Positions 1 to 63,512 of a stretch of 64,000 nt of DNA are shown here, piece by piece. Within the stretch, counting starts at the first letter, position 1, and each line of letters begins with the position of its first letter. This DNA comes from an uncultured virus (IMG/VR IMGVR_UViG_3300027612_000506). Lineage: Duplodnaviria; Heunggongvirae; Uroviricota; Caudoviricetes. The notes beneath the pieces are model-generated. The model saw nothing but the letters and a program-made list of their open reading frames with translations. It ran no database searches and was not told the origin of the DNA. The position numbers and the translations under genes were made by a program. The DNA lies in the IMG/VR virus record IMGVR_UViG_3300027612_000506. The stretch is one strand, 5' to 3'.

Positions 1-726
1 CCATATGGTACAAAAGAAGAGGCACTAGTATCTAAAAATAAGATGTATGGATTGCTACGGGAATATATGAATAGGCAACCTATAGATATAAACTCTATTG
101 ATTGGTCAGAACTTAATACCTGGGTGGATAACGGACCATATGAATTGCCTGATGTATATGGAGTTTCGGGTGAAACAGAAGAAAAAAAAGATGCCGCGAA
201 CTTTAGTAATAAGTGGTCACCTATAGTGGAAAATAATATTAGGGACAGTTACTTCAATGTAGTAGTTGAATCCCATTACGAACACACTAATCCTGGATTT
301 AGATATGACTCCAAATATTCGTACTTAGAGTTTTCACCAACCTTTATAACTGAAAAAACATATAAAGCAATCATGTGTCAAAGGCCTTTCATATTGTACG
401 CAGGTGCGTATGGGTTGAGACAATTAAGAAAGATGGGATTTAAAACATTTGCACCGTATATCAATGAGGAATATGATGAATGTCGAGATGACATTGAAAG
501 GATGCGTATGGTAGCAGATGAAATTGAAAGGTTATGCAATCTACCTGATGATGAGCTCAAAGATCTTTTTTATAACCATCTATTCCCCGTGGCAATATAC
601 AATCAAACAGTATTAAAAAAATATCAAAATCAGTTTACAGCAAAAAAATGGTTCCCAGAAATAGATTCATATTTCAGATACACTGCTAATCTGGATGATA
701 TCATACAAAAAGAACTTTATAAATAG
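1..726 (+). CDS. Glycosyltransferase-like protein (GT10/fucosyltransferase-like C-terminus), 5'-truncated by the window edge
   Basis: Frame is open from position 1; SYFNVVVES...FITEKTYK...PFI segment resembles the GT10-type EK motif. Confidence 0.45.
   Translation, partial: PYGTKEEALVSKNKMYGLLREYMNRQPIDINSIDWSELNTWVDNGPYELPDVYGVSGETEEKKDAANFSNKWSPIVENNIRDSYFNVVVESHYEHTNPGFRYDSKYSYLEFSPTFITEKTYKAIMCQRPFILYAGAYGLRQLRKMGFKTFAPYINEEYDECRDDIERMRMVADEIERLCNLPDDELKDLFYNHLFPVAIYNQTVLKKYQNQFTAKKWFPEIDSYFRYTANLDDIIQKELYK
718..725 (+). promoter_or_regulatory. T4-type late promoter TATAAATA
   Basis: Exact TATAAATA followed by an AGGAG RBS and the gp3 start; gp55 is encoded in the window. Confidence 0.8.
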
Positions 727-744
727 TCGTATAGGAGATAATAT

Positions 745-1332
745 ATGGCTTATAATCCAATAACAAATGTAGCAGAGGCAGGTTCATCAGGTGCAAACAA
801 CCCATCTGAACTTGATTATCTTCGCCCTAATGGATTTAAATTCCAAATCCATAATATCCCCAATGTGTCGTTTTTTTGCCAAGCGGCAAACATTCCTCAA
901 ATGTCACTTGGTCAACAAGAAGCACAGACACCTCTATCTAACCTATACTTCCCAGGTGAGAAGTTAGCTTTCGGTGAATTGGTTATCCGATTCTTAGTAC
1001 AAGAAGATATGGCTAATTACAAAGAGTTATATGATTGGATGGTTGGTTTAGGTTCGCCTGAAAACCATAAACAGTTTTCTGATTATGTTGACGGACAAAG
1101 ATTTAGGTTTCCCAACCAAAATTCTAAAACTAAAGACTTAGGTCAATTTAGTGATGCTACACTATTTGTGTTGGACTCAAACAATAATCCAAATGTAAAG
1201 TTTACATTTAAAGATGTGTTTCCCATCAGCCTGGAAGGATTAGATTTTGATATTAGTAGCGGTGACCAAAACTACTTTGTGGGTGTAGCGGCATTTAGGT
1301 ACCGGTTATTTAATATCGAAACGGTAACCTAA
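745..1332 (+). CDS. gp3: Tail completion / tail tube terminator (T4 gp3-like)
   Basis: YLRPNGFKF, FFCQAANIP and F-DVFPISL motifs; conserved position before uvsY. Confidence 0.8.
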   Translation: MAYNPITNVAEAGSSGANNPSELDYLRPNGFKFQIHNIPNVSFFCQAANIPQMSLGQQEAQTPLSNLYFPGEKLAFGELVIRFLVQEDMANYKELYDWMVGLGSPENHKQFSDYVDGQRFRFPNQNSKTKDLGQFSDATLFVLDSNNNPNVKFTFKDVFPISLEGLDFDISSGDQNYFVGVAAFRYRLFNIETVT

Positions 1333-1994
1333 TGAAACCAAATTTATTATGTGTAGGTAATGTGAAAGCTGGCTCAACATCACTTAATGAGACCTTAAAT
1401 CAACACTCTCAAATTTTTATGGCTAAAGAAAAAGAGATACACTTCTTTGACTTCAATTATGATAAGGGATTTGATTGGTATGAAAGTCACTTTAAACAGC
1501 ATACCAATGAATTGATTGTAGGTGAAACCACTCCAAACTATATGTATCGAGATATATTTTTAGATCGTATCTATAATTATGCAGACGACTTAAAAATTAT
1601 AGTCCTTATAAGGAACCCAATAGAAAGAGCGTTATCACATCACAATATGTTTTATCTAGGAGGAGTGGATAAATATACAACTATTACAGAATCTAATATG
1701 TTTAATTGGTATATGGAAAAATCACTATGTTATGATAGGATTAAACAACTAGAGGACCGGTATGATGTACTATGTGTTCAGACAGAGAAATTAGATCAAA
1801 GCTATAATATGATACAAAAATGGTTAGGGGTGGATAATGAGAATTTAATACCGGTTCGTGCTATGGTGGCACCATCTAAATTGGACATAGATATAGAGAC
1901 AAAGAAAACATTATTACCTTTCTTTAAAGATGAAATAGAAAACCTAGAAGAACATTTGGGATGGGATTTAAAAAATTACAAAACGGTCACATAG
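1332..1994 (+). CDS. PAPS-dependent sulfotransferase
   Basis: 5'PSB motif KAGSTSL, KEIHFFD, 3'PB motif RNPIERALS. Confidence 0.85.
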   Translation: MKPNLLCVGNVKAGSTSLNETLNQHSQIFMAKEKEIHFFDFNYDKGFDWYESHFKQHTNELIVGETTPNYMYRDIFLDRIYNYADDLKIIVLIRNPIERALSHHNMFYLGGVDKYTTITESNMFNWYMEKSLCYDRIKQLEDRYDVLCVQTEKLDQSYNMIQKWLGVDNENLIPVRAMVAPSKLDIDIETKKTLLPFFKDEIENLEEHLGWDLKNYKTVT

Positions 1995-2037
1995 TTCTTG
2001 ACTTTTGTACCGTTTGTTGCTATAGTATGTATAAATA
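1986..2037 (+). promoter_or_regulatory. Sigma70 promoter (TTGACT 1998, 17 bp, TATAGT 2021) with an upstream GTCA and a tandem late promoter TATAAATA (2030)
   Basis: Consensus boxes with 17-bp spacing upstream of uvsY. Confidence 0.75.
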
Positions 2038-5470: not shown

Positions 5471-5499
5471 TTGACATCTCTTTAACTTTTGTGTATAGT
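5471..5499 (+). promoter_or_regulatory. Sigma70 promoter of queE (leaderless)
   Basis: TTGACA 5471, 17 bp, TATAGT 5494; ATG at 5507. Confidence 0.8.
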
Positions 5500-5506
5500 T
5501 TACATT

Positions 5507-6412
5507 ATGAATATTAAATACTCTGAAATTTTTTATAGCTTCCAAGGTGAAGCTGAACTTGCCGGCAAGCCATCTGTGTGGTTACGCTTCTTTGGTTGTA
5601 ACCTTGAATGTAATGGCTTTGGTCAAGATAACCCTGCCGATGAATCCTCATGGGAACTTCCCTTTAAGGATGCAGACTTGTCACTCATTAAAACAGTAGA
5701 AGAACTTCCTGTTTTTAGTAAGGGGTGTGATTCATCTTACTCCTGGTCAAATCGCTACAAACACTTATGTCCTTCCGAATCTGTAGAGGAAGTATGTGAT
5801 AAGATTGAAGCACAACTACCCAATGGTAGATTTGTACAGGATGAACATTCTCCTGGTGCAACTGATACAATGCTTTGTTTTACAGGTGGTGAACCTATGC
5901 TACGGCAAAAACATATGCAAGCAATTGTTGAGGAGTTTATTAAACGGGGTAACTGTCCTAAAACTGTAACTGTAGAAACAAATGGCACTAAGCCCATAAC
6001 TGGTGCATTTAAGGATTGGTTATCGCTTATCACTTATGAGTTGGACATGAGATGGCATTGGGCAATCAGTCCTAAACTTCTTCATACAGCAGGGGAAAAA
6101 GATGCAGTTATTCCCGATGTTATTGTAGGTTATGCAGATGCTTGTTCTAGAGTTACAACTATTCTAAAGTTTGTTTGTAACGGATCAGATGCATCTTGGA
6201 ATGAAATTGATGAGGCATTAAAAAATACTAGTTTAGAGTTTGCAGATATTTCTGATGTAGTATCTTTTCCCGATGTTTGGATTATGCCTGTAGGCGCTAC
6301 TAAAGAACAACAAGAAAGTGTTGTTGATATTGTAATGGAAACAATGCGGCGAGGGTACAAGGTAGCAACTCGTAATCACGCATATGTATTTGGAAATCAG
6401 ATAGGAACTTAA
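5507..6412 (+). CDS. queE: 7-carboxy-7-deazaguanine synthase (radical SAM)
   Basis: EIFYSFQGE, LRFFGCNLEC...GCDS, FTGGEP, ETNGT. Confidence 0.9.
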   Translation: MNIKYSEIFYSFQGEAELAGKPSVWLRFFGCNLECNGFGQDNPADESSWELPFKDADLSLIKTVEELPVFSKGCDSSYSWSNRYKHLCPSESVEEVCDKIEAQLPNGRFVQDEHSPGATDTMLCFTGGEPMLRQKHMQAIVEEFIKRGNCPKTVTVETNGTKPITGAFKDWLSLITYELDMRWHWAISPKLLHTAGEKDAVIPDVIVGYADACSRVTTILKFVCNGSDASWNEIDEALKNTSLEFADISDVVSFPDVWIMPVGATKEQQESVVDIVMETMRRGYKVATRNHAYVFGNQIGT

Positions 6413-6414
6413 TT

Positions 6415-6894
6415 ATGAAATATTCTATGGAATACCCCCATCTTCCTCAACCGCAATATGAATATGATATTACATACAATTTAGGTAATCCGCAAATTGA
6501 ATTATCTTGGAAGAATATTAATCGTATTGTAGATAAAATTGAAGCTCAAGTACGAGACAAAGGTTATACCGCTGTAGTAGGGCTTGCTCGAGGGGGTGTT
6601 GTACCTGCTATTATGTTGAGTCACCGATTAGGAATAAAGTTTGAATCGGTCACATGGCAAACACGGGATGGCGGGTTTCAGGAGATAGGTCGTCTAAATA
6701 ATATCGTTAACCGAGAAAAGGTTTTAATTGTAGATGATATTTGTGACTCTGGGTTAACACTAACACAAGTAAAAGCAAATCATCCAGATGCAGATGTTGC
6801 TGTGTTAGTGACCAAAGTGGACACAAAACTAGTTGACTTTGTAGGTGAGACATATTATAATGATAATCGTTGGGTAGTATTTCCTTGGGAGTAG
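6415..6894 (+). CDS. Type I phosphoribosyltransferase (Gpt-like)
   Basis: GLARGG, PRPP loop VLIVDDICDSGLT, C-terminal WVVFPWE. Confidence 0.9.
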   Translation: MKYSMEYPHLPQPQYEYDITYNLGNPQIELSWKNINRIVDKIEAQVRDKGYTAVVGLARGGVVPAIMLSHRLGIKFESVTWQTRDGGFQEIGRLNNIVNREKVLIVDDICDSGLTLTQVKANHPDADVAVLVTKVDTKLVDFVGETYYNDNRWVVFPWE

Positions 6895-6896
6895 AT

Positions 6897-7577
6897 ATGA
6901 AAATAAGTGACAAAATTAAACAGCGTCTTGAATTGGACGCATATCGGTATCATGCCGCGGATAATATTAGTCAGTATATACATGAGGGAGAACATACTCT
7001 TTTAATTGATGAAGTATCTGAAAAATTTGAGGCTGTATTACAGAGTCTTGTAATTGATACTGAGGATGATCCTAATAGTAATGGAACTGCTCGTCGTCTT
7101 GCTAAGATGTATATTAATGAAATTATGGGTGGTCGTTATTATCCTAGTCCTAAAGTAACATCATTTCCTAATGATGGGCAGTATGACCAACTAATAGTCG
7201 TTCGTTCTGATATTAAGTCGATGTGTTCTCATCATCACCAACCCGTAACAGGTATTTGTTATATCGCCTGTATGCCGGGTGAGAATCTTATTGGGCTGTC
7301 TAAGTACACCCGAATCGCACAACACCTTGCATCTCGTGGACACTTACAAGAAGAACTAACAGAAATGATTGCTAGTGAGATTGAGCGTCTTACACATTCA
7401 CCTGCTGTTGGTGTTTACATTAGAGCAAGACACGGGTGTTGTGAAAACCGTGGCATTCGTTCATCTAACAGTGCCACACAAACTACTGTTCTTAAGGGTG
7501 CATTAAAAAATGACCCTGCTCTAAAGAACGAGTTCATGCACAATATTCAAATACAGGAGAATTTGTGTAATGGATAA
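6897..7577 (+). CDS. folE: GTP cyclohydrolase I
   Basis: TARRLAKMY, SMCSHHH, GLSK, QEELT, HGCCENRG. Confidence 0.95.
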   Translation: MKISDKIKQRLELDAYRYHAADNISQYIHEGEHTLLIDEVSEKFEAVLQSLVIDTEDDPNSNGTARRLAKMYINEIMGGRYYPSPKVTSFPNDGQYDQLIVVRSDIKSMCSHHHQPVTGICYIACMPGENLIGLSKYTRIAQHLASRGHLQEELTEMIASEIERLTHSPAVGVYIRARHGCCENRGIRSSNSATQTTVLKGALKNDPALKNEFMHNIQIQENLCNG

Positions 7578-8322: not shown

Positions 8323-8867
8323 ACATTTTTTACTTGCATGAGAAGCCCGAAACTTGCGCTCAACTACATTGTGACAAGCATGTGGTTAAGATGATTATTG
8401 AGTATGCACAGTTGATGTCTACGGCACATCGTGTACTAGACGGTGACCTTTACAATGACAAGACTAAAAATGGTCGCAATATTAAACGGTGGCGCCTTAG
8501 TAGTGACAATGCCGAGTCTGTAATTTACAAAGCATCCCACATTAATCATCCTTCAGGTATTTGGACTCGTGCAACGGATGAAAATTACAAATGGCTTTAT
8601 GCGCTGTGGCTAGAATTGTGTAAAGAATACACACACCGTTATGGTAAGAAACATCTTACACAGGAAAAACTAGAGCATATACTATGTAACACTCCTACTA
8701 ACATTCCCTCTGGTCCTCTTACGGAAGTCCCACAGGCGATGCCCGATGATGTTAAGACAACAGATCCTATTAAGGCATATAAATCTTATTATCGTCAATA
8801 CAAACAGGCGTTTGCTAAATGGACAAACCGCCAGACACCAGAGTTTATGTTATGTCCCACACACTAG
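8319..8867 (+). CDS. Pyrimidine-dimer DNA glycosylase family (DenV-like)
   Basis: MNIFYL...HCDKHVVKM..EYAQL, HINHP, EYTHRYGK, PQAMP. Confidence 0.75.
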   Translation: MNIFYLHEKPETCAQLHCDKHVVKMIIEYAQLMSTAHRVLDGDLYNDKTKNGRNIKRWRLSSDNAESVIYKASHINHPSGIWTRATDENYKWLYALWLELCKEYTHRYGKKHLTQEKLEHILCNTPTNIPSGPLTEVPQAMPDDVKTTDPIKAYKSYYRQYKQAFAKWTNRQTPEFMLCPTH

Positions 8868-10120
8868 AATATGTAGTATCAGGCACAAGTTATATGCGTC
8901 TTAGCAATCCTCAGGTATCCAAGTCACCTGAGAATGTTGCTATGATTAATGACTTGTTCACAAAATTTGTACACAACCAGAAGGGACATACTTTTTCTGC
9001 TCTATACAATGCATATCAAGAGTCCAGTTTCGGTGAGAGATTTCAGCCGTATAAAAGTGCAATTAAAAATATACATGCAGACTCAGGTGGTTTGCAGATT
9101 GTTACTCTAGGCAAAACTATCACTGAGGAACTTAAAGATAAAATCTATGAAAATCAGGCTAAGTGGTCTGATGTAGGTATGTGCTTTGATGAGATTCCGG
9201 TTGTGTTGACTGATGGTAAGTCCGACAGAAATGATGTTAATGCAAGGTATTTTGACTTTGATAATTATGAGGAAATGGCTCGTAAGACAGGTCGAAATAT
9301 TAAACGACAATTAGAAATTTTTGAGAAAAACAATAGCACTTGTAAACCCTTTGCAATTTTACAAGGAAATTGTTATGACACTTATATGACCTGGTCAGAG
9401 CAATTGTTATCTGAGGTGCCTCAGGGCTGGCACGAGCGCATTGGTGGCATAGCAATGGGTGCGGCCGCACTAGGTACAGGTCCGCTAGAGGATGTTAAAC
9501 GAGCATTTATTGCTAGTCAGATTCCTTTGCGTAACAAACAAGGTAAACTACACTTACACATTCTAGGGGTAGGTTCTATTCGTAGACTTATTCCTTATCT
9601 TATCTTTTGTCAGAATGGATTGTACGACCACATCGAAATCTCATATGATAGTACAACACATAGTCGAGCGGCAGAGACAGGGCTATACTTTATGGGCGAT
9701 AAAACTATTAAGTATGGCAGAGAGTGGTCAGACTTGTATCAGACTTTTTATGATGACATCGAAAAGACTGAGCCAGTAGGGTGTAGCATAAAGGACTTTT
9801 ATGCTATTCTAAACTCAGGTTCAGAAAAATGGAAAGAGTCTGGTGGGGATTTTCACATGTGGCTTAGAGTAAGATACTTGTTTGTGTTGTCTAGTATTCG
9901 TAATTTTATGCATCGGGTTGACCAATTGATGAATGACCCAGAAGAAATTTTACGCTTTACGGGCAAACTGAAACTTGAACATCAATTTAGAAACCTGTAT
10001 AATGTAAAGACAGTCGAGGATTTTAAGCGATGGGAAAGCGACCAATACTTAGGGGGTAGCATGAAGTCGATGGCTGTTAAGAGTCAGGCACCTGCAACAT
10101 TGGAAGGATTATTTGGATGA
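8852..10120 (+). CDS. dpdA: TGT-fold base-exchange enzyme, DpdA-like (7-deazaguanine DNA insertion)
   Basis: TGT motifs ADSGGLQ, FDEIP, ILQG, HILGVG, SYDST; no C-terminal Zn-binding Cys cluster; inside the que cluster. Confidence 0.75.
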   Translation: MSHTLEYVVSGTSYMRLSNPQVSKSPENVAMINDLFTKFVHNQKGHTFSALYNAYQESSFGERFQPYKSAIKNIHADSGGLQIVTLGKTITEELKDKIYENQAKWSDVGMCFDEIPVVLTDGKSDRNDVNARYFDFDNYEEMARKTGRNIKRQLEIFEKNNSTCKPFAILQGNCYDTYMTWSEQLLSEVPQGWHERIGGIAMGAAALGTGPLEDVKRAFIASQIPLRNKQGKLHLHILGVGSIRRLIPYLIFCQNGLYDHIEISYDSTTHSRAAETGLYFMGDKTIKYGREWSDLYQTFYDDIEKTEPVGCSIKDFYAILNSGSEKWKESGGDFHMWLRVRYLFVLSSIRNFMHRVDQLMNDPEEILRFTGKLKLEHQFRNLYNVKTVEDFKRWESDQYLGGSMKSMAVKSQAPATLEGLFG

Positions 10121-10534: not shown

Positions 10535-11625
10535 TTTACTTAGTTGATCTTGAGTATGTAGAGTCTCGTTACACATCACAATGGAAAACAGAATTTCCTG
10601 CGCTTTTTAAGTGGCATGGTCTTGATGTGAAAGTCATTGAAGGTCCTGCTGATATTGCCGCATGTACTACACCAGGTGCGTTTCTTAACTTCTCAGGTAC
10701 AAATGTATATAAAGCAGAGCAAGTAAAAAGAATTGCCAACCTCTTTACATCTAATGATATTAAAGATGGTGACCAGTTTGTATTTGCGGATGCATGGCAC
10801 CCTGGTGTAATTAATCTTAAATATATGGCAGAACTATTAGGCATTAAGATTAAAATTCATGGTCTTTGGCATGCAGGTAGTTATGACTCTCAAGATTTTC
10901 TTGGTCGATTGATAGGCAATGCTGGATGGGTAAGACATGCTGAAAAAAGTATGTTTGAATGTTATGATTATAATTGGTTTGCTTCTGACTTTCACATTGA
11001 TTTGTTTATAGAGGAAATGCTTGATACAGATAAAAGAACTGGGCGTATTCGTTATATGGATACTGCAAAAGGTAAAATCTCAAAAACTGGTTGGCCTATG
11101 GATTATCTGCACAATGAGATCTCTTGCGATAAAGTAGGAACAAATAAAGATGATATAATTTTGTTCCCACATCGTATTGCACCTGAAAAACAACCAGAGA
11201 TTTTTGAGGACTTAGCAAACGAACTACCTGAATATCAATTTATCTTTTGTCAAAAAATGAATCTGTCTAAGAAAGAATATCATGCATTACTTGGTAAGGC
11301 AAAAATGGTATTCTCTGCTAACACGCAGGAAACATTGGGCATTGGTTGTTTCGAGGCTTTATGTGCAAATGCAATTCCATTAGTCCCAGATAGATTATCA
11401 TATACTGAGATGTACTATTCAGAGTTTAAGTATGACAGTGAATGGACTGAGAGTATGGATAGTTACATGAAACACAAGGAAAAACTTATTAGCCGTATTC
11501 GTAATTTAATGAGTAATTATAGTACAGATGCTGTACAAAGTGTAATAAATACAAATAGAGAATTTTTAGAATGTGATTATTTTTCTGCTGAAAGTCTAGT
11601 AGAAAAAATTAAAGAGGTGATGTAA
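10531..11625 (+). CDS. GT-B (GT4-like) glycosyltransferase
   Basis: HRIAPEKQP, SANTQETLGIGCFEA (E-x7-E), VPDRLSYTE. Confidence 0.8.
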   Translation: MIYLVDLEYVESRYTSQWKTEFPALFKWHGLDVKVIEGPADIAACTTPGAFLNFSGTNVYKAEQVKRIANLFTSNDIKDGDQFVFADAWHPGVINLKYMAELLGIKIKIHGLWHAGSYDSQDFLGRLIGNAGWVRHAEKSMFECYDYNWFASDFHIDLFIEEMLDTDKRTGRIRYMDTAKGKISKTGWPMDYLHNEISCDKVGTNKDDIILFPHRIAPEKQPEIFEDLANELPEYQFIFCQKMNLSKKEYHALLGKAKMVFSANTQETLGIGCFEALCANAIPLVPDRLSYTEMYYSEFKYDSEWTESMDSYMKHKEKLISRIRNLMSNYSTDAVQSVINTNREFLECDYFSAESLVEKIKEVM

Positions 11626-12083
11626 TGTATTATTCAACAAAGACTTATGGACACGAACGCGGCTTATCTTGTGCGTTTAGACAACCCCTAGCTAGTCATT
11701 CACACTGTAGTCTTATTCATGGTTACAGTCTCGCTTTCAGTTTTAAATTTGCCGCTAGAAACCTAGATGATAAAAACTGGGTAGTAGACTTTGGCGGTCT
11801 TAAGGATCTCAAAAATTGGCTAGAGAAAATGTTTGACCACACATTGGCTGTGGATAAAGATGATGTTAATCTCAAAGATTTTCTAGAGTTAGAAGAAAAG
11901 GGCTTGGCTGTTGTTCGTGTTATGAATGGTGTCGGGTGTGAGAAATTTGCCGAACATGCTTTCTGGTTTGCTGATGAGTTAGTCAAGACAATGACTGATG
12001 GTAGATGTCGTTGTGTTTATGCTGAGTGTAGGGAACATGGCGCAAACTCAGGCATTTATGAACCAGAGGTAATTGAAATTTGA
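11625..12083 (+). CDS. queD: 6-carboxy-5,6,7,8-tetrahydropterin synthase
   Basis: HCSLIHGY, WVVDFG, FDHT, GCEKFA. Confidence 0.9.
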   Translation: MYYSTKTYGHERGLSCAFRQPLASHSHCSLIHGYSLAFSFKFAARNLDDKNWVVDFGGLKDLKNWLEKMFDHTLAVDKDDVNLKDFLELEEKGLAVVRVMNGVGCEKFAEHAFWFADELVKTMTDGRCRCVYAECREHGANSGIYEPEVIEI

Positions 12084-51574: not shown

Positions 51575-51587
51575 AGAAAACAATTAC

Positions 51588-52955: not shown

Positions 52956-52980
52956 CAATCAAGCAATAGTTATGTATTAT
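52952..52980 (+). promoter_or_regulatory. Sigma70 promoter of primase (leaderless)
   Basis: TTGACA-17-TATTAT; ATG at 52988. Confidence 0.75.
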
Positions 52981-52987
52981 ACATACT

Positions 52988-54022: not shown

Positions 54023-54288
54023 TGTCATTTTGGAAGACTGTAGTAACATGGTTTACTAGCACATTTGATTACAACAAAGATGGTGTTGTTGATAAGGAAG
54101 ATGTCGAGATGAAGGTCGAAGCGGTTAAGAAGGAAACAAAGCGCCGTGTACGCCGTGTTAAAGAAGAACTGGATGATGTAAAATCTGCCGCCAAAGATGT
54201 CGTTGATCAGGCGAAAGATGTTGCAGGTGCCGTCAAAGGAAAACCACGCCGCGGCCGCAAGCCAAGAGCAACAACAAAAAAGAAGTAA
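54022..54288 (+). CDS. Hypothetical protein with an EF-hand-like loop and a basic tail
   Basis: DYNKDGVVDKED; AGGAG RBS. Confidence 0.55.
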   Translation: MSFWKTVVTWFTSTFDYNKDGVVDKEDVEMKVEAVKKETKRRVRRVKEELDDVKSAAKDVVDQAKDVAGAVKGKPRRGRKPRATTKKK

Positions 54289-54303
54289 AAGGGAAATTAT
54301 ATA

Positions 54304-54996
54304 ATGAGTGAAGTGAACCTTATTGCATTATCAAAGCCATCTGCAAAAACTGACTGCAACGCCGCCTCTGATTTGATTGCTTATACTGCTCGTGTAAGCA
54401 ATCCATCTAATCAAAATAACATGGAGACTGCTCCTAAGTTACTACGGTATCTGATTAAGGAGAACCATTGGTCTCCTTTTGAAATGGTACATATGACTAT
54501 GGAGATTAAAACTACTCGTGACATTGCAAAACAAATTTTGCGTCACCGCAGTTTTAGCTTTCAGGAGTTTAGCCAGCGGTATGCAGTTTCGGACTCGTTT
54601 TCTTTGAGAGAAGCGAGACTGCAAGATCCTAAAAATCGTCAAAACAGCATTGAGTTGGATGAGGTTGAGGATGTTGGCAAAGGTGGTAACAAGACTCAAC
54701 AGGAAAGACTTTATGAAAACTGGAACATGAAGCAAATGGAAGTTATCAATAAGTCTAAGGAAGTATATAAGTGGGCGTTACAGCAAGGAATCGCTAAGGA
54801 ACAAGCAAGAGCGGTACTACCTGAGGGCAACACTGTAACCACACTTTATATGGCAGGTAGTTTGCGTTCATGGATTCACTACTGTGATTTGCGCCGCGGT
54901 AATGGTACCCAGAAAGAACACATGATAATTGCCGACAAGTGTTGGGCTATTATTGGTTCACACTTTCCTGATATTGTAGCGGCACTGGAAGAATAA
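54304..54996 (+). CDS. thyX: Flavin-dependent thymidylate synthase
   Basis: HWSPFE, RHRSFSFQEFSQRY, QKEH. Confidence 0.95.
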   Translation: MSEVNLIALSKPSAKTDCNAASDLIAYTARVSNPSNQNNMETAPKLLRYLIKENHWSPFEMVHMTMEIKTTRDIAKQILRHRSFSFQEFSQRYAVSDSFSLREARLQDPKNRQNSIELDEVEDVGKGGNKTQQERLYENWNMKQMEVINKSKEVYKWALQQGIAKEQARAVLPEGNTVTTLYMAGSLRSWIHYCDLRRGNGTQKEHMIIADKCWAIIGSHFPDIVAALEE

Positions 54997-55502
54997 TGGA
55001 ACCGATTTTTCATCTACAAAAAGAGTTCTGGGACTATGCCGACTTGAAAGAGGAAGCAAAAGTTTTAAAAAATGAAGCTCTAGTATTTGAAACATCCAAA
55101 GCTATTATCCGTGCAGTACCCATGTCCAGTAGGAGCCCTGCTTTAAAGAAGTTATATGGGGAGTTCTTAAAAACATACCCATATAACTTCGGGGAAATCT
55201 CAATGTCCTACATGTACATTAATAAGGGTGAAGTATATCCTTATCATGTTGACAATGTAGCATCTACCGCAGTTAGTAATCTTAAGCCTGTGCAATGCAC
55301 TATTAATATTTTAGTTTCAGGCGATGAAAATGAAGTAGAATTTGAAGGGTTAGGTAAATACAGGTATAAGGCATGTGTGTTTAACACATCACACATGCAT
55401 AGAATTACACCGCAGTCTGACCGAACCATTGTAAGGATTTCTTTTAGAGAATCCTCATATGAAGATGTCGTCCGCAAAATAAAAGATACAATAAATACCT
55501 AA
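54996..55502 (+). CDS. Putative 2OG-Fe(II)/cupin oxygenase
   Basis: PYHVD, FNTSHMH, R-IVRISF; similar architecture to 29900. Confidence 0.55.
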   Translation: MEPIFHLQKEFWDYADLKEEAKVLKNEALVFETSKAIIRAVPMSSRSPALKKLYGEFLKTYPYNFGEISMSYMYINKGEVYPYHVDNVASTAVSNLKPVQCTINILVSGDENEVEFEGLGKYRYKACVFNTSHMHRITPQSDRTIVRISFRESSYEDVVRKIKDTINT

Positions 55503-55520
55503 CCAGTGAAAGGAAATACT

Positions 55521-55691
55521 ATGACAAAAAAACAACCCTCCTACAGTGACTTAGAAGCAGAGCACTATCAAAAATTAAAAAACAAAGAACTTGATCCCGA
55601 CAGGCGGGATTGGGAATATTCACCTGAGGGCACAAAAATCTTTAAACCCGAAGCGGGCAAACCAACCCCAACAGTATACGAGAAAGAATAA
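55521..55691 (+). CDS. Hypothetical protein
   Basis: AAGGA RBS, coupled to nrdA. Confidence 0.5.
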   Translation: MTKKQPSYSDLEAEHYQKLKNKELDPDRRDWEYSPEGTKIFKPEAGKPTPTVYEKE

Positions 55692-57490
55692 TGGCAAAAC
55701 AAGATTATATGGGTATTCAAATTGACCCTTCCCGGGATGAACTATTTGACAAGCTGGGACTTAACCGGTTAAAAGAAAGTTATATGCGAGATGATGAGAC
55801 ATCTCCACAACAAAGGTTTGCGTATGTAAGTAAACAATTTGGATCTAATCCTGAACACGCACAGAGGCTTTATGAATATTCTAGTAAACATTGGTTGTCT
55901 TATAGTACCCCTATTCTATCTTATGGTCGCAGTAAGCGCGGCATGCCTATTTCTTGTTTTCTTAACTACATTGAAGATACAGCGGAAGGGCTTGTCCAAA
56001 ACTATTCTGAGACCTCTTGGCTCTCTATGCTTGGGGGTGGTGTTGGTATTGGGTTTGGGATTCGTGCGGCAGACGATAAGTCAACAGGAGTTATGCCCCA
56101 TCTTAAAACCTACGATGCAAGTTCCTTGGCTTATCGACAAGGCCGCACTAGACGAGGAAGTTATGCCGCTTACCTAGATATTTCACATCCCGACATCGGA
56201 ATGTTCCTCGAGATGCGTAAACCTACTGGTGACCCAAACATGCGCTGTCTCAATCTCCATCACGGTATCAATATCAGTGATCGCTTTATGGAAATTGTTG
56301 AACGCTGTATGACTGATCCTAACGCCGACGATGGTTGGAATTTGTGTGACCCCCACACTGGTGAAGTAAGAGATACTGTATCAGCGAAGGCACTGTGGCA
56401 AAAGATTCTAGAGTTGCGTATGGAGACCGGTGAACCATACATTCATTATATTGACACAAGCAATCGTTTGATGCCTGAGTTTCAGAAAGAACTTGGGTTG
56501 AAAATCCATCAGTCAAATCTTTGCTCTGAAATTATCCTACCTACAAACGAACAAAGAACCGCTGTATGCTGTTTGTCATCTGTTAACTTAGAATACTATG
56601 ATGCTTGGTCGAAGGATCCTATGTTCCTCAAAGACATGGCAGAGATGTTAGACAATGTGTTACAGTTCTTTATTGACAATGCTCCAGACGCTGTAGCAAG
56701 AGCTAAGTTTTCTGCTACACAAGAAAGGAGTATTGGTATCGGAGCATTGGGATTCCATGCCTATCTACAGAAAAAGAATCTTGCATGGGAAGGCGCTATT
56801 GCTAAAGGCGCTAACATGAGAATGTTTAAGTTAATTAGGAGCAAATTGGATGAAGCAAATATTGAACTTGGTAAAGAGCGAGGCGAGGCTCCTGATGCAA
56901 AGGGCACAGGCAGAAGATTTAGTCATGTTATGGCTATCGCTCCCAATGCTAGTAGTAGTATTATTATGGGAAACACTTCGCCGTCCATTGAACCATATCG
57001 TGCAAACGCATATCGTCAGGACACACTTAGCGGTGCGTATCTCAACAAAAATAAGCATTTGGATAATCTCATTAAGAGTAAAATTGAAGAAAATCCAAAG
57101 ATTGATTATGATGAAACTTGGTCTTCAATAATTGCAAATGATGGGTCAGTACAACATCTAAAATTCTTGGATGAATATGAGAAAGATGTATATAAAACAT
57201 CAATGGAAATTGACCAGCGGTGGGTAATTGAACATGCGGCTGATAGACAGGTATTTATCGACCAAGCACAATCGCTGAACTTGTTCTTCCGCCCTGATAC
57301 AAACATTAAGTATCTACATGCCGTACATTACCTAGCATGGAAACAGGGATTGAAAACTTTATATTATTGCCGTTCAGAAAAACTCGGTAAAGCAGACAAA
57401 GTGTCTAACCGAATTGAGCGACAAATTATTAAAGAAATTGATATGAGTAGTTTGGTAAATGATGAAGAATGCCTGGCCTGCGAAGGCTAA
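55691..57490 (+). CDS. nrdA: Class I ribonucleotide reductase alpha subunit (no ATP cone)
   Basis: PISCF, SNLCSEI, APNASSS, TLYY, C-terminal CLACEG. Confidence 0.95.
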   Translation: MAKQDYMGIQIDPSRDELFDKLGLNRLKESYMRDDETSPQQRFAYVSKQFGSNPEHAQRLYEYSSKHWLSYSTPILSYGRSKRGMPISCFLNYIEDTAEGLVQNYSETSWLSMLGGGVGIGFGIRAADDKSTGVMPHLKTYDASSLAYRQGRTRRGSYAAYLDISHPDIGMFLEMRKPTGDPNMRCLNLHHGINISDRFMEIVERCMTDPNADDGWNLCDPHTGEVRDTVSAKALWQKILELRMETGEPYIHYIDTSNRLMPEFQKELGLKIHQSNLCSEIILPTNEQRTAVCCLSSVNLEYYDAWSKDPMFLKDMAEMLDNVLQFFIDNAPDAVARAKFSATQERSIGIGALGFHAYLQKKNLAWEGAIAKGANMRMFKLIRSKLDEANIELGKERGEAPDAKGTGRRFSHVMAIAPNASSSIIMGNTSPSIEPYRANAYRQDTLSGAYLNKNKHLDNLIKSKIEENPKIDYDETWSSIIANDGSVQHLKFLDEYEKDVYKTSMEIDQRWVIEHAADRQVFIDQAQSLNLFFRPDTNIKYLHAVHYLAWKQGLKTLYYCRSEKLGKADKVSNRIERQIIKEIDMSSLVNDEECLACEG

Positions 57491-58070
57491 AGAAATAGCA
57501 AATAATATCCCCAGAGACAAACGAATTGCAGTAGTTGTCTCTGGGGGTTGGGATAGTGCCGTGTTATGGCACATTGTTTATAATGAGTGTCTTGAGCGCA
57601 GACAAAGTTGTCGCCCATATACTGTACCTAAATTAGATGGGGCTGTACATTGGGCTAATCAAGTATTAACACTATCAGGTTATACCGACACAACAAATGT
57701 TATAGGTAGTGTTGATGCTGAAGATCCCTCTAAATATGTTGCAAGCGGCATCATTGATATCTTTGAAAAGGGATTAGCTGATATTGTTTATGTGGGAGTA
57801 ACGAAATATTATGAAGGTATGGAACCCGACCACGATAGACAACATGCAAGTCAATACAATGCCGAGGATAAATGCCTACAACCTTTTTCTAATATGACAA
57901 AGGATGAGACTGTACAGTTAGGTTTTGATTTGGGTATTGCACAGGGACTGATGCATACCACGCATAGTTGCACAGAACAGGATGTTGGTAGGTGCCAATA
58001 TTGCCAGTGGTGTAAGGAGCGAGAATGGGCATTCAATGCCATTGGTAAAATAGATGAAGGAAGAAACTAA
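57459..58070 (+). CDS. QueC-like PP-loop ATPase
   Basis: VSGGWDS; THSC...RCQYCQWCKER zinc motif. Confidence 0.7.
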   Translation: MMKNAWPAKAKEIANNIPRDKRIAVVVSGGWDSAVLWHIVYNECLERRQSCRPYTVPKLDGAVHWANQVLTLSGYTDTTNVIGSVDAEDPSKYVASGIIDIFEKGLADIVYVGVTKYYEGMEPDHDRQHASQYNAEDKCLQPFSNMTKDETVQLGFDLGIAQGLMHTTHSCTEQDVGRCQYCQWCKEREWAFNAIGKIDEGRN

Positions 58071-58255
58071 TGAAATTTAAAATTTACTCTAGAGATGATT
58101 GTAAGTTCTGCAAAGATGCTAAGGACTTTTTAACTGGTATGGACTATGAGTTTGAGGAGGAAGAACAACCTACAGGAACGGTGCCTCAAATTTATTTAGG
58201 TGAGGAACATATCGGCGGTTATAATGAACTAGTTAAATGGGTGGCTGCACAATAA
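58070..58255 (+). CDS. Glutaredoxin
   Basis: CKFC, TVPQI, IGGY. Confidence 0.9.
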   Translation: MKFKIYSRDDCKFCKDAKDFLTGMDYEFEEEEQPTGTVPQIYLGEEHIGGYNELVKWVAAQ

Positions 58256-59028
58256 TGTTAATTTCCTTTGACGATATAACCCTTAGTGACCGCTTATTAA
58301 CTAAAGTGCCTGATTGGTATCTTTACACATTGGATATTGAAACTGACAAAGGGCATTATCAGATAAATTGGGAAAGTGTAGATAAGTTAGCATTTTACAC
58401 AACATTTCAAATAGGTTTAGGAAACCATGGACCTGTTTCACTGCAAAATTTTTATAACTTACATAATCAAATGCGACAAGAGGAATGGAATAGAAATCAT
58501 TCCTTGGGAACATATAATGACTTGCCTCGAGACGCAAACATTCTTGATATTGGGTGTGGTGTAGGTATTAACAGTTTGATCTTACATAACTACTTACCTG
58601 AGAGTAAATTAAATCTTTTGGATAAGAACGCTGGGTGGGAAGAAGTTAAGGATCAGCCTAGAGATTTTTTAAATGGTTACAATGAGGAATATGTTTTTTA
58701 CAATGACACCAGCTTAACTGAGGAAGCAATTAGACTTAGTAATATGGACTCTGACCGTTTTAGATTTATGACCCCCGACAGTGAGTGGGAACAATATGAT
58801 TTAATTCAGTCTACTTGGTCATATGCATGGCATTATCCTCTTGACATTTACTATGAAAAAGTGTTACAATGCTTAAAACCAGGCGGTAAACTATTGTTAG
58901 ATATTTGGAGAGTTGAAGATGCAGAGCGTATTAGTAAGGATTTAAATTGTGAACCCGAACTAAGTGATTTTCCTATAGAACAAATGGTTTGTGGGCACTC
59001 TAAACGCTTTTTATGGACTAGGAAATAA
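58255..59028 (+). CDS. Class I SAM-dependent methyltransferase
   Basis: ILDIGCGVG, YDLI, LKPGG. Confidence 0.85.
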   Translation: MLISFDDITLSDRLLTKVPDWYLYTLDIETDKGHYQINWESVDKLAFYTTFQIGLGNHGPVSLQNFYNLHNQMRQEEWNRNHSLGTYNDLPRDANILDIGCGVGINSLILHNYLPESKLNLLDKNAGWEEVKDQPRDFLNGYNEEYVFYNDTSLTEEAIRLSNMDSDRFRFMTPDSEWEQYDLIQSTWSYAWHYPLDIYYEKVLQCLKPGGKLLLDIWRVEDAERISKDLNCEPELSDFPIEQMVCGHSKRFLWTRK

Positions 59029-59031
59029 ATT

Positions 59032-59964
59032 ATGAAAATTTTGATAACCGGCTCATCTGGATTCATTGGATCTCATCTTGTTCCAATGCTTAAAAAAGAG
59101 CACCAAATATACCACCTGGACAATGACTTACGAGACCACTTAAAGGTTCGTGAGGAAGTTAGTTATATTAACCCAGATATTATTGTACACTTGGCCGCAC
59201 GAACAGAGGTCGAACAGAGTTTTTATGAGCAAGTAACCTTTAGTGACATTAATTATACTGGCACAGTAAATTTAATTGAGGCTGCCAGAAATTGTAAGAA
59301 TCTCAAAAACTTTGTTTTTGCTAGTACAATGGAAGTATACGGCTGGCAACCAATTAGTGATGAAATAAAAATTAATGGTAAGCCAGAGAAGCATGTTGCA
59401 TTTGATGAAAACACACAGCCTAATCCTAACGCACCTTATGCGGTTGCAAAATATGGGTGCGAGAAATATCTACAGTATGCACATAGATCTTATGGTATGC
59501 CTTTCACTGCTATTCGACAAACAAACTGTTATGGTAGAAAAGACAATGACTTTTTTGTTACGGAGCAAATCATAACACAGATGTTGCATAGTATAAATAG
59601 CGGGTCGAATGAACCTCAAATTAATTTGGGTTACGGCGAACCGTACAGAAACTTTATATATATTGATGACATGTTAGAAGCATGGCACGCCGTAATTTCT
59701 AACCCAGAAAAATGTAATGATGGTAAAATATTTACCATTGGTCCTGACCAACCTATTAAAATTTCCGACTATGTTGATATGATAGCGGAAAAACTAGATT
59801 GGCACGGTACTGTTAATTGGGATACAAAGCCACATAGACCAGGTGAAATATACTGGTTGAACAGTAATCATAATTTGATTACAGAGACTTTAGGGTGGCA
59901 ACCAAGTACAACCTTATCTGATGGGTTGGACAAAACAATAGCAATATGGAAAGACTTACTATAA
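59032..59964 (+). CDS. NAD-dependent sugar epimerase/dehydratase
   Basis: GSSGFIG, HLAA, YAVAK (YxxxK), RNFIYIDD. Confidence 0.9.
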   Translation: MKILITGSSGFIGSHLVPMLKKEHQIYHLDNDLRDHLKVREEVSYINPDIIVHLAARTEVEQSFYEQVTFSDINYTGTVNLIEAARNCKNLKNFVFASTMEVYGWQPISDEIKINGKPEKHVAFDENTQPNPNAPYAVAKYGCEKYLQYAHRSYGMPFTAIRQTNCYGRKDNDFFVTEQIITQMLHSINSGSNEPQINLGYGEPYRNFIYIDDMLEAWHAVISNPEKCNDGKIFTIGPDQPIKISDYVDMIAEKLDWHGTVNWDTKPHRPGEIYWLNSNHNLITETLGWQPSTTLSDGLDKTIAIWKDLL

Positions 59965-62201
59965 TGGCAAGAAAAAATTTATATCTTTTTCAACCACAAT
60001 ACACCATGAACTTTCAGGGTACTACACAGAACTGGCTACCCTATTCAGCAGGTTGTTTGTGGGCATATGCTAATGAAAAGTCTGACATTGTTAAGGAGCA
60101 TTGGAATCTCGATGGGCTTTATTTTGCAAGAGATAAAATTGATGAAGTTCTTGAAAAAATGGAAGAGCCTGTACTTGCAGGGTTTAGTACATATGTATGG
60201 AATGAACAATACAATCTGCACATGGCATACGCAATTAAGGAACGCTGGCCTAATTGTATCATAGCATTTGGCGGCCCACAGGTTAATGAAAGCGACCTTG
60301 ATACATATCCTTGGATTGACTTGGTCATGTTAAGTGAGGGCGAAAAACAATTTACAATGTTGTTGGAAGATATACACAACAACAAACCTCTAAAAACTAT
60401 ATACACTGGACAACGAATTACTGATCTATCAGAACTCCCTAGCCCGTTTACTACCGGGGTGTTTGATAAACTGATTGCAGACAACCCTGATATTATTTGG
60501 CAAACACCATTTGAAACATCCCGTGGTTGTCCTTTCTCCTGCACCTTTTGTGATTGGGGAAGTTTAACATACTCGAAAGTTAAACAATATGAGTTTGAAA
60601 GGTTAGAAGAAGAAATTATTTGGATGAGTAAGAATCCTATTGCCTATGTTTTTATGGCAGATGCAAACTTTGGCATTTTCAAAAAACGGGATGTGGACCT
60701 TGCTAAGATGTTTCACAAACATTTAGATAATAGTCGCATGGATAAAATTAATATCCAATATGCTAAGAACAGTAATGACCATGTTATTGAAATTGGTAAG
60801 GCTCTTGGTAGATTGGGTAAAGGCATCACCCTTAGTCAACAAAGTATGAGCCCCACTGTACTAGAAGAAATTAAGCGAACTAACATGGACATTAATAAAC
60901 TTAATGAAATGTTAGATAAAACTGAAGAGGCTGATTTGGATGCATACAGTGAAATGATTATCGGCTTACCCGGTGAGACACTAGAGTCCTGGAAAAAAGG
61001 TATGGGTGAGATACTTGAAGCCGGTCAACATAATTGCGTTGAGGTTTGGTATGCACAAACTCTTAAGAACAGTGACATGTCTACAATTGAATCAAGAGAG
61101 AAGTACGGTATTAAAACTGTACTAGTTAAGGACTATATCTTCCTTTATAATGACCCAGATGATATTCCTGAATATGTAGAAGTTGTTAGTGGTACAAAGG
61201 ATATGCCTACTGAGGATATGATTGAAGCATATATGTATTCTTGGATGGTTGTTCGTTTTCATGTATATGGATATACATATGCTCTTGCACGATATGCAAG
61301 ACAAAAAGGCATTTCTTATAATGACTTTTATGAAAAAATGTTCTCTCTAATTCCATCTACTAATCATATTGATGACCACTTTAATACTATTAAAAGAAGT
61401 GTAAGTAAATATCTTACAGAAGACCAAGTGGGTGAAGATGCAGGTAAGGGATGGTTCCAACTCCGCAAAAATATTCCTGACCACAGGCAAAAACCTGCAA
61501 GCGGTGAAGCTGTAGCTGATGGTCGATTGCTTATTGCAAACGAGAAGGGTGGAGACTGGTCTCAACTTATTGCAACCGATAAAACATCCCCCCTAGAGTT
61601 GACCCCAAACGGAAAAGAGGAAGAGGAAAGACCCATCTTCTCTATGAACTTCTATGAAAAATCTAAAGGTAACAGTAATATGGAGAATGTCACTACTGCC
61701 GATAGATATGAAAAGGAAGAAGAACCTAAAGCAATGTTCTCAGGTAAAAATAACCTGATGACAACAGGTACTCCTAAAGAAACAATGCAAGAAGCAAGAG
61801 TAAAGGTAAGTACCTGTGATGAAGAAACAAAAAATGATTCTGCACATGCTTGGTTGTATCAGAAAGAGACAGACTTTGTAGATCATAAATTAGAAATTTA
61901 TGATATTGCTTGGCAAACCTTAAAACACTTCCTACCAGATACTGATGAGAGTATTTTGGATTGTCAAAAGGCATACATGTTTGATCCTAGTCATGTATAT
62001 CCATTTACACTACGCACTAAAATGGATTGGAATACATTTGAAGAAACTGAGGAATATAAGTACTATACTGTTACCAGCAATATGACCGAAGCTGGCGGCA
62101 CATATGACAATAGACGGAACCGTCACCCTGCTAAAAATACGCTAACCCTAATAGAGAACGAGGATACCCATGTCGAAGAAACAAAACTTGCAAGAGCCTA
62201 G
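59964..62201 (+). CDS. B12-binding radical SAM enzyme with a charged insertion
   Basis: GFSTYVWN, GGP, ETSRGCPFSCTFCDWG, DANFG, IGLPGET. Confidence 0.85.
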   Translation: MARKNLYLFQPQYTMNFQGTTQNWLPYSAGCLWAYANEKSDIVKEHWNLDGLYFARDKIDEVLEKMEEPVLAGFSTYVWNEQYNLHMAYAIKERWPNCIIAFGGPQVNESDLDTYPWIDLVMLSEGEKQFTMLLEDIHNNKPLKTIYTGQRITDLSELPSPFTTGVFDKLIADNPDIIWQTPFETSRGCPFSCTFCDWGSLTYSKVKQYEFERLEEEIIWMSKNPIAYVFMADANFGIFKKRDVDLAKMFHKHLDNSRMDKINIQYAKNSNDHVIEIGKALGRLGKGITLSQQSMSPTVLEEIKRTNMDINKLNEMLDKTEEADLDAYSEMIIGLPGETLESWKKGMGEILEAGQHNCVEVWYAQTLKNSDMSTIESREKYGIKTVLVKDYIFLYNDPDDIPEYVEVVSGTKDMPTEDMIEAYMYSWMVVRFHVYGYTYALARYARQKGISYNDFYEKMFSLIPSTNHIDDHFNTIKRSVSKYLTEDQVGEDAGKGWFQLRKNIPDHRQKPASGEAVADGRLLIANEKGGDWSQLIATDKTSPLELTPNGKEEEERPIFSMNFYEKSKGNSNMENVTTADRYEKEEEPKAMFSGKNNLMTTGTPKETMQEARVKVSTCDEETKNDSAHAWLYQKETDFVDHKLEIYDIAWQTLKHFLPDTDESILDCQKAYMFDPSHVYPFTLRTKMDWNTFEETEEYKYYTVTSNMTEAGGTYDNRRNRHPAKNTLTLIENEDTHVEETKLARA

Positions 62202-63156
62202 AGAATATTTTAAACCTTTTAATTATCCTTGGGCTTATGATGCTTGGTTAAAACATGAGCAGTCTCACTGGCTACACACCGAAGTCCCTATGGCAGAGGA
62301 TGTAAAGGACTGGAAAAACAAACTAACTAAAGCCGAACAAGCCTTTCTAACTAATATCTTTCGTTTCTTTACACAGGGTGATATTGATGTTGCGGGTGGT
62401 TATGTGACAAATTACCTGCCTCACTTCCCACAGCCTGAGGTTCGCATGATGCTTGCAGGGTTTGCGGCAAGAGAAGCATTACATGTTGCGGCTTATTCGC
62501 ACCTCATAGAGACCTTAGGAATGCCAGAGAGCACCTACAATGAGTTTCTTGAGTATGAGGCTATGAAGGACAAGCATGAATACTTTATGGAACTGTCTAA
62601 CATGGATGCAGACAAGAAAACAGTAGCAACAAACATTGCCGCTTTTTCTGCATTTACTGAAGGCATGCAGTTATTCTCCTCGTTTATTATGTTGCTGAAC
62701 TTCCCTCGACACGGCAAAATGAAAGGCATGGGTCAGATTGTTACTTGGTCAATTGTTGATGAGACAATGCACGCCGAGTCAATGATTAAACTGTTCCGTA
62801 CCTATGTTGAGGAAAACCTAGAGATTTGGAACGATGACCTCAAAGGTAAGATCTATTCTATTGCTGAGAAGATGGTAGAGCTTGAGGATAAATTTATTGA
62901 CCTGGCATTTGCCATGGGTCCAATGGAAAATCTTTCATCCGAAGATGTTAAGAAATATATCAGATATATCTGTGACCGCAGACTCATTAGTCTTGGTCTT
63001 AAAGGTATTTTTAAAATTAAAAAGAATCCTCTACTGTGGGTTGAGGAAATGATTAACGCACCAACACATACAAACTTCTTTGAAAACCGAGCAACAGACT
63101 ATGCCCGAGGCGCATTGTCAGGTGATTGGGGAGATGTATGGGGTTCTGCGGCGTAG
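62170..63156 (+). CDS. nrdB: Ribonucleotide reductase beta subunit
   Basis: FFTQGD, EALH..AY, TEG..LFSSF, DETMH, NFFE. Confidence 0.95.
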   Translation: MSKKQNLQEPREYFKPFNYPWAYDAWLKHEQSHWLHTEVPMAEDVKDWKNKLTKAEQAFLTNIFRFFTQGDIDVAGGYVTNYLPHFPQPEVRMMLAGFAAREALHVAAYSHLIETLGMPESTYNEFLEYEAMKDKHEYFMELSNMDADKKTVATNIAAFSAFTEGMQLFSSFIMLLNFPRHGKMKGMGQIVTWSIVDETMHAESMIKLFRTYVEENLEIWNDDLKGKIYSIAEKMVELEDKFIDLAFAMGPMENLSSEDVKKYIRYICDRRLISLGLKGIFKIKKNPLLWVEEMINAPTHTNFFENRATDYARGALSGDWGDVWGSAA

Positions 63157-63165
63157 GAGAATTTA

Positions 63166-63336
63166 ATGCCTAAAGCCAATAAATGGTTAGAATGCATTTC
63201 GTGTGAGGCGATGTTTACTGTAAAGCATAGTATGGATATAGAATTCTATACTGTAGAGCATTGCCCTTTCTGCGGAGATGAGCTTGATATTGAAGTTGGG
63301 TTGGATTATGACGAAGAAGAAGAGGATTACGAATGA
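63166..63336 (+). CDS. Small zinc-ribbon protein (56 aa, not in the ORF track)
   Basis: CISC...CPFCG, acidic tail, AGGAG RBS. Confidence 0.65.
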   Translation: MPKANKWLECISCEAMFTVKHSMDIEFYTVEHCPFCGDELDIEVGLDYDEEEEDYE

Positions 63337-63512
63337 GCCAATGGCATGGCGGGAAGGGCAGTAAGCCTAGAAAAGTTACAGACCAGGATCAGTTTGATTC
63401 CAATTGGGATTTAATTTTTGGCAAAAAGGATCAAAAAGTCAAACAGGCAATGGTGACAGATCTCAATTGGGACGGTGAAGAAGAGGAAGAGCCTAAAACA
63501 GATGACGGCTAA
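63333..63512 (+). CDS. Small hypothetical protein (59 aa, not in the ORF track)
   Basis: WHGGKGSKPR...NWDLIFG; ATGA coupling. Confidence 0.6.
   Translation: MSQWHGGKGSKPRKVTDQDQFDSNWDLIFGKKDQKVKQAMVTDLNWDGEEEEEPKTDDG

Follow-up and report, generated by a model that had tools for sequence, protein, structure and literature searches.

The window analysed here, a 64,000-nucleotide stretch deposited as IMG/VR record IMGVR_UViG_3300027612_000506, is DNA of an uncultured marine T4-like phage in which the tetranucleotide GATC is retained or lost according to the bases that flank it. Its 93 plus-strand open reading frames (ORFs) make up 97% of the window, every long ORF lies on the plus strand, and the GC content is 0.36-0.43. 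Pfam matches cover replication and recombination functions of T4 type (UvsY, UvsW, family-B polymerase, clamp, clamp loader, UvsX and a gp41-type helicase) together with RegA, ribonucleotide reductase (RNR), ThyX and auxiliary genes usual in marine myoviruses. The polymerase shares no more than 50% identity with those of cultured cyanomyoviruses and 60-89% with those of many IMG/VR contigs. Near-identical DNA is present in marine, estuary, seawater and wastewater metagenomes (24 runs listed, assembled contigs), and contigs of X2-X5 that match positions 44001-64000 show that the phage population also occurs in four more metagenomes. The window also carries genes for a plausible 7-deazaguanine modification system, judged from similarity and gene order, to which we return below.

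The GATC sites were counted by flank, with R for purine and Y for pyrimidine, against 500 synonymous-codon shuffles of the 93 ORFs; counts are given throughout as observed, then expected. The window holds 80 GATC sites where 185.9 are expected, 79 of them within positions 560-63445 and the last at 63459. The deficit is very unevenly shared between the flank classes. Sites with a 5' purine on both strands are mildly depleted (RGATCY, 37/48.4), sites with a purine on one strand are reduced to 40/90 (RGATCR 24/46.3 and YGATCY 16/43.8), and sites with a pyrimidine on both strands have nearly vanished, with YGATCR at 3/47.4 (standard deviation 5.6, lowest shuffle 28) and its observed share reached in none of the 500 shuffles. 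Other null models give similar YGATCR expectations (53.5 for shuffled codon order, 40.1 for a Markov chain). The sequence-only reading of this DNA had counted about 75 GATC sites by eye with a single exception to the flank rule, and had named the comparison of NGATCN contexts with a codon-shuffled control as the check to be made; that comparison bears out the near-total loss of YGATCR and corrects the tally to 80 sites and three exceptions (Table 1), two of which had been missed. None of the 40 listed of 708 differences between X2-X5 and the window falls inside the two YGATCR sites of positions 44001-64000. Furthermore, the pattern extends beyond the window: two end-walks over same-phage contigs (L141 and L142, the former a close variant, since its overlap with the window is not letter-identical) added 15,110 bases of flanking sequence (15.1 kilobases, kb), in which RGATCY stands at 11/13.5, mixed sites at 13/23.9 and YGATCR at 0/10.5.

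The way in which the sites have been removed is visible in the codons. YGATCR is lost in both reading frames that have a usable expectation (GAT|C, 3/35.1; nnG|ATC, 0/10.8). Before a codon starting with C, the aspartate codons GAT and GAC occur at 26:11 when the flanks are R..Y, 17:19 for R..R, 14:37 for Y..Y and 3:49 for Y..R, compared with 924:486 over all codons, and the isoleucine codon ATC is used in 0 of 47 cases in the Y..R context. The impression gained by eye that TGACC often stands where TGATC would be expected is borne out in the same figures, with YGACCR doubled to 58/28.4. When all 16 GNNC cores are compared, Y..R-flanked forms are lost only in the palindromic cores GATC, GCGC and GGCC. 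The limitation of the loss to palindromic cores, together with the doubling of YGACCR, points to cleavage of duplex DNA and not to a composition bias. An account without restriction, by codon-pair preference, mutational bias or a gene-calling artefact, could draw on the fact that most sites lie in the one frame GAT|C, but the loss occurs in two frames, is missing from non-palindromic GNNC cores and from nine related lineages with neutral GATC content, and holds under three null models, leaving this account with hardly any probability. A general TG...CA or Y-G...C-R composition effect is ruled out by the comparison of GNNC cores, and a reading-frame or stop-codon artefact by the loss in both informative frames. 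The window avoids restriction sites through synonymous codon changes such as GAT to GAC and ATC to ATT, and it combines codon-aware depletion, palindrome specificity and synonymous removal. In this it resembles palindrome avoidance in other phages, where short palindromes are under-represented against codon-aware null models and synonymously removed and the avoided set varies between related phages, but it differs in that the avoidance bears on a four-base core and is graded according to its flanks.

GATC is one of many words avoided in the window, whose restriction-avoidance profile is unusually broad. ACGT is absent (0, against 140 in the synonymous shuffles and 80.5 under the Markov null) and does not occur in the 15.1 kb of flanking sequence either; its absence is common to some related lineages (for example L034 and L093) but not to most. 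Of the palindromic hexamers, fourteen do not occur at all, including AAGCTT (0/22.5), ATCGAT (0/15.3), TGGCCA (0/9.6), TGCGCA (0/6.0), GTCGAC (0/5.5), AACGTT, TACGTA, GCTAGC and CGTACG, and about ten more fall below 0.35 of expectation. Deficits are also seen for CAGCTG (1/12.5), GCWGC (13/81.5), GGCC (26/84), TCCGGA, which contains G-G-A (1/5.8), and the GA-containing hexamers TTCGAA (4/19.0), TCATGA (2/11.8) and GAATTC (6/18.2). Since restriction-type words are avoided on this broad scale, many type II enzymes evidently have access to the phage DNA. CGCG is a second four-base core with flank-dependent survival, and the exempting base differs from that of GATC: in the window CGCG (41 sites) persists nearly exclusively where one strand has a 5' C (CCGCGG at 2254, 6955, 10172 and other positions). 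CCGCGG is found at 14/4.8, and CCGCGA and CCGCGC remain at 0.8 and 0.93 of expectation, while ACGCGT, ACGCGC, ACGCGA and GCGCGA, non-palindromic contexts included, are depleted to 0-0.22. A deficit of YGCGCR (1/18.7) was considered as a second case of the GATC flank rule and dropped, because two of its three hexamer classes hold the purged CGCG and only TGCGCA is left.

In order to describe the flank rule at single-base resolution, the two strands were pooled into ten half-site pairs, named by the 5' flank on each strand. Observed-to-expected ratios are 0.51 (AA), 0.93 (AG) and 0.82 (GG) with a purine on both strands, 0.36 (AT), 0.73 (GT), 0.34 (AC) and 0.34 (CG) for one-sided pairs, and 0.11 (TT), 0.04 (CT) and 0 (CC) with a pyrimidine on both. 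The non-palindromic pair TGATCG/CGATCA, observed once against 22.7 expected, shows that the target is the degenerate YGATCR class and not merely the sum of BclI-type and PvuI-type sites. With a Markov null calibrated on the nine relatives with neutral GATC content, in which the TT, CT and CC classes stand at 0.74-1.09 of expectation, the ratios over the combined 79 kb are 0.70 for RGATCY (0.77 under synonymous shuffles), 0.44 for one-sided sites (the four pairs 0.40-0.52) and 0.06 for YGATCR. The best two-parameter fit, by the Akaike information criterion (AIC), is a rule under which a 5' purine on either strand suffices for a site to be tolerated (AIC 41.4, compared with 46.4 for YGATCR against the rest and 48.1 for independent half-site costs), so that the flank rule proposed by eye holds. 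A preference for G over A in the flank (likelihood-ratio p 0.048 under the shuffle null) was dropped, the same bias being present in the Markov null of the neutral relatives.

The gradation could also arise from an asymmetric target, a host enzyme of type IIS, IIG or III recognising the 5-mer YGATC and imposing an independent cost for each copy on either strand. Depletion does deepen with each added Y-flanked half-site (0.77, 0.44, 0.06), and TGATC is under-represented whatever base precedes it (ATGATC 7/31.7, GTGATC 3/22.3, CTGATC 7/23.6, TTGATC 17/39.4). Against it, multiplicative models fit less well (AIC 48.1-54.3, against 41.4-46.7 for the either-strand purine/pyrimidine model), RGATCR and YGATCY show no strand bias (24/46.3 and 16/43.8), and two independent costs (base 0.85, factor f 0.42) would leave about 7 YGATCR sites where 3 are observed. 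We regard such an enzyme as improbable.

Related IMG/VR loci, grouped into 47 units, show lineage-to-lineage differences in avoidance of the GATC family, of the kind that host enzymes would produce. The window-like pattern recurs in L085 and L218. A full purge of GATC is seen in L042 (1/44), L090 (0/29), L091 (0/25) and L159 (3/33). L201 has lost RGATCY only (AGATCT 0/13.5, AGATCC/GGATCT 0/13.4, GGATCC 0/3.3, other contexts normal), L184 AGATCT only (0/13.5) and L132 TGATCA only (0/11.2, with mixed sites at 33/35). In the RNR-anchored, 21.8-kb sequence of L179, GATC is kept only with a G flank on at least one strand (18/18.2; other contexts 0/43.8). These purges of RGATCY, TGATCA, AGATCT and all GATC match the specificities that we take to be those of XhoII/BstYI (RGATCY), BclI (TGATCA), BglII (AGATCT) and MboI/Sau3AI (GATC), PvuI (CGATCG) being a further member of the family. 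The class lost from the window differs from all of these in being the mirror image of RGATCY and in including TGATCG/CGATCA, so that no pair of six-base palindromic cutters explains the purge. A further arrangement is seen in L059, where AGATCA (0/16.5), GGATCA (0/6.8) and CGATCA (2/8.7), complements included, are depleted and TGATCA is enriched (18/8.3), and in L061, where the same three contexts and their complements are depleted and TGATCA stands at 24/14.6; GGCC and CCGG are absent in this lineage. The cultured phages that carry a homologue of the transglycosylase-like gene described below have patterns of their own, with GGATC-bearing classes at 11/37.5 and CGATCG at 0/17.6 in phi-ST2, and AGATCT at 14/31.5 and TGATCA at 9/29.5 in BUCT-ZZ01.

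To account for these observations we favour, at a probability of roughly 0.55, a host enzyme with a YGATCR-type effective target acting on top of a weaker general pressure on GATC. Such a host, met by the phage lineage, would make a double-strand endonuclease, a degenerate relative of BclI and PvuI, for which sites matching on one half only would be poor substrates; a second, weaker or older pressure would act on GATC in general, and the two together would yield ratios of 0.06 for YGATCR, 0.44 for one-sided sites and 0.70-0.77 for RGATCY. The sequence-only reading had listed a YGATCR enzyme as the alternative to a protective modification; it is the preferred reading here, though sequence alone is no proof of it. 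An N6-methyladenine motif written YGATCR is reported once in a marine Vibrio in the excerpted text of PMC13016926, which lends weak support, as it may be the motif caller's rendering of Dam methylation.

Several points weigh against this reading. We know of no catalogued or described YGATCR endonuclease, and a full-text literature search turned up that string in just two papers. A strict YGATCR enzyme leaves the roughly two-fold loss of one-sided sites unexplained, so that a second pressure or half-site activity is needed, and the step between one-sided sites and RGATCY (0.44 against 0.70) is itself modestly supported (likelihood-ratio p 0.02-0.03). Moreover, the best-fitting either-strand rule is also what a strand-wise protective modification should produce, and the phage has candidate modification genes, the known relatives of which act on the G in GA. 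Because a homodimer that needs two cognate halves and a protection conferred by either strand give the same ladder, site counts do not discriminate between the two leading readings.

Table 1. Candidate 7-deazaguanine genes, surviving YGATCR sites and other features of the window.
Feature	Position	Strand	Remarks
QueE-like radical SAM enzyme	5489..6409	+	PHROG 2076, E 4.9e-48; NCBIfam QueE, E 1.8e-13, under cut-off
Xanthine/guanine-type phosphoribosyltransferase	6415..6891	+	Between the QueE-like gene and FolE; same layout in Synechococcus phage BUCT-ZZ01 (L226)
GTP cyclohydrolase I (FolE)	6870..7574	+	Pfam PF01227, E 1.6e-38
Divergent TGT-superfamily protein, DpdA2-like candidate DNA guanine transglycosylase	8819..10117	+	433 residues
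QueD / 6-pyruvoyl-tetrahydropterin synthase family	11625..12080	+	Pfam PF01242, E 5.1e-12
QueC-like PP-loop protein	57459..58067	+	Pfam PF06508, E 6.1e-10; TIGR00364, E 4.2e-8, under cut-off
Surviving YGATCR site, TGATCA	20354-20359		In ORF 20238-20561; missed by the sequence-only reading
Surviving YGATCR site, TGATCA	54204-54209		In ORF 53998-54288; exception given by the sequence-only reading
Surviving YGATCR site, TGATCG	56278-56283		In the RNR large-subunit gene; missed by the sequence-only reading
Four tRNA genes in a row	39461-40139		Arg-TCT, Thr-TGT, Trp-CCA, Pro-TGG
Further radical SAM protein	22904-23989
Further radical SAM protein	34302-35873
Further radical SAM protein	59946-62198

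The central gene of the candidate system (Table 1) encodes a divergent member of the tRNA-guanine transglycosylase (TGT) superfamily. The protein matches the NCBIfam TGT model under its curated cut-off (E 4.2e-7), and the top 50 Foldseek matches to its AlphaFold2 model (mean predicted local distance difference test score, pLDDT, 86.7) are all tRNA-guanine transglycosylases, the best at E 8.9e-10 and probability 1.00, with template modelling (TM) scores of 0.49-0.59. Sequence and profile searches of the PDB with this protein and its 364-residue neighbour returned nothing usable. The family alignment contains invariant Asp residues. The protein is 44% identical to a BUCT-ZZ01 protein and 30% identical, over 95% of its length, to phiST2_0370, which sits between FolE and QueD/QueC within the QueF-FolE-...-QueD-QueC cluster of Vibrio phage phi-ST2; from this position we infer that phiST2_0370 is the DpdA2 of PMC10516641, and similarity to and synteny with that cluster make the window protein a DpdA2 candidate. 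As regards the preQ0 pathway, FolE, QueD and the QueE-like enzyme are clear and QueC is partial, the QueC models matching only the C-terminal third of the protein. The phosphoribosyltransferase may serve the 7-deazaguanine pathway in base salvage or activation. Three more radical SAM proteins are encoded in the window, two of them with B12-binding domains; one is KedN5-like (E 1.1e-50, far under the model's curated cut-off at 172.5 against 700 bits) and one adjoins an epimerase/dehydratase, a class I methyltransferase, a glutaredoxin and the QueC-like gene.

These genes would allow a 7-deazaguanine shield, the principal rival to a YGATCR enzyme, in which the DpdA2-like protein would exchange the G of GATC for a preQ0-type base only after a purine (R-G-A or R-G-A-T-C). 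A plain GATC enzyme would then be blocked by a mark on either strand, so that only YGATCR would be purged and one-sided sites would be half safe. Such a shield reproduces the ladder closely: with a protection of about 0.45 after a purine and 0.03 after a pyrimidine, the either-strand model predicts 0.70/0.47/0.06, where 0.70/0.44/0.06 is observed. Among palindromic hexamers, seven of the eight with Y-G-A are purged, against one of the four with R-G-A strongly so (TCCGGA). The TGT-fold protein is accompanied by FolE, QueD, QueE and QueC-like proteins in a cluster syntenic with those of phi-ST2 and BUCT-ZZ01, and known phage DpdA enzymes act at the G in GA. According to the excerpted text of PMC7544227, the DpdA of phage CAjan modifies GA and GGC contexts, by which EcoRV and HaeIII are blocked, and the modification signal is slightly lower at TGA than at AGA, CGA and GGA; the excerpted description of Pseudomonas phage iggy gives a strict GA motif.

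The sites outside GATC largely speak against such a shield. In 18 relatives depleted of GAATTC, a purine flank brings no rescue and RGAATTCY is the most depleted class (6/27.3, ratio 0.22; mixed 24/55.6, 0.43; YGAATTCR 12/28.1, 0.43); in the window itself the sites are too few to tell (RY 3/4.9, mixed 2/8.6, YR 1/3.8). GATATC over seven units leans weakly in the direction of an R-G-A rule (RY 0.44, mixed 0.31, YR 0.18). The loss of TCCGGA, which has G-G-A, and of GGCC, which has GGC, also counts against the shield, as does the disappearance of the apparent G-over-A flank preference after correction by the neutral relatives, and the survival of CGCG with a 5' C is inexplicable by an R-G-A rule. 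Quantitatively, an R-G-A rule would require 30,609 modifications per million nucleotides (15.8% of G) and an RGATC-only rule 891. The excerpted text of PMC10516641 gives 668 dPreQ1 and 44 mdPreQ1 per million nucleotides for phi-ST2 DNA, and 668-816 dPreQ1 for DpdA2-type Vibrio phages, and it names no target motif for DpdA2. An R-G-A rule needs about 40 times these levels, which counts against it, and the RGATC-only need is of the same order as the 668-816 measured.

The relatives add a second line of evidence. The full-purge lineages L090 and L091 carry an orthologous TGT-like gene (76% and 71% identity) and yet have purged every GATC, purine-flanked sites included, and other lineages have purged exactly RGATCY; in the available partial sequence of the RGATCY-only purgers of the clade, the TGT-like gene was not seen. 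The closest relatives with measured DNA modification are the DpdA2 Vibrio phages (phi-ST2, phi-Grn1, VH7D and nt-1), which are also T4-like myoviruses. The window shares with phi-ST2 the homologue of phiST2_0370 in a similar neighbourhood with FolE, QueD and QueC, but it has no QueF in profile searches and an added phosphoribosyltransferase, and phi-ST2 avoids GGATC instead of sparing it. The likeness to CAjan and iggy, so far as their excerpted descriptions go, lies in a phage TGT-family enzyme with a preQ0 pathway and in a short G context being modified so that enzymes with that context are blocked. The differences are that the window heavily purges GA and GGC sites, so that a CAjan-type rule is no general shield in it, and that the excerpted text of PMC7544227 reports no 5' purine requirement, only the slight dip at TGA.

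The modification claims of the sequence-only reading are supported only in part. Its R-G-A shield retains the flank rule and plausible 7-deazaguanine genes, but is set against GAATTC without rescue, the full purges of L090 and L091 and the 40-fold shortfall; its link to the GA/GGC rule of CAjan fails, since GGCC, ATCGAT, TTCGAA and TCATGA are purged. A purine-flank shield common to the clade is unlikely, while a lineage-specific specificity is still compatible with these tests. For the window we hold the 7-deazaguanine shield to be a tentative explanation, clearly less probable than a YGATCR enzyme.

A shield could alternatively be laid down by a methyltransferase, a strand-specific enzyme of phage or host that would target RGATC or GGATC and place its methyl group inside GATC. 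It would yield the same either-strand signature, and L179, with GATC kept only as GGATC/GATCC, looks like either an 'HGATCD' purge or a GGATC-specific shield of this kind. However, profile searches of 79 kb, a part of the genome, yielded no DNA methyltransferase family, the only matches being small-molecule-type Methyltransf_23 and Methyltransf_24 domains, and we consider this explanation slightly less probable even than an asymmetric YGATC target.

The two leading readings carry different consequences. Were the 7-deazaguanine shield true, flank-resolved site statistics would for the first time provide a sequence motif of a DpdA2-type enzyme and would explain the low modified-base content of such phages, and the 0.70/0.44/0.06 survival ladder would be a readout of transglycosylase sequence specificity. 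If the preferred reading of a host YGATCR enzyme is true, the genome records a specificity for which, to our knowledge, no described enzyme is a match. It would mean that this marine phage clade closely tracks the restriction repertoires of its hosts, with neighbouring lineages differing in their GATC-family purges, and that such records would be of use in inferring hosts and their defences from metagenomes.

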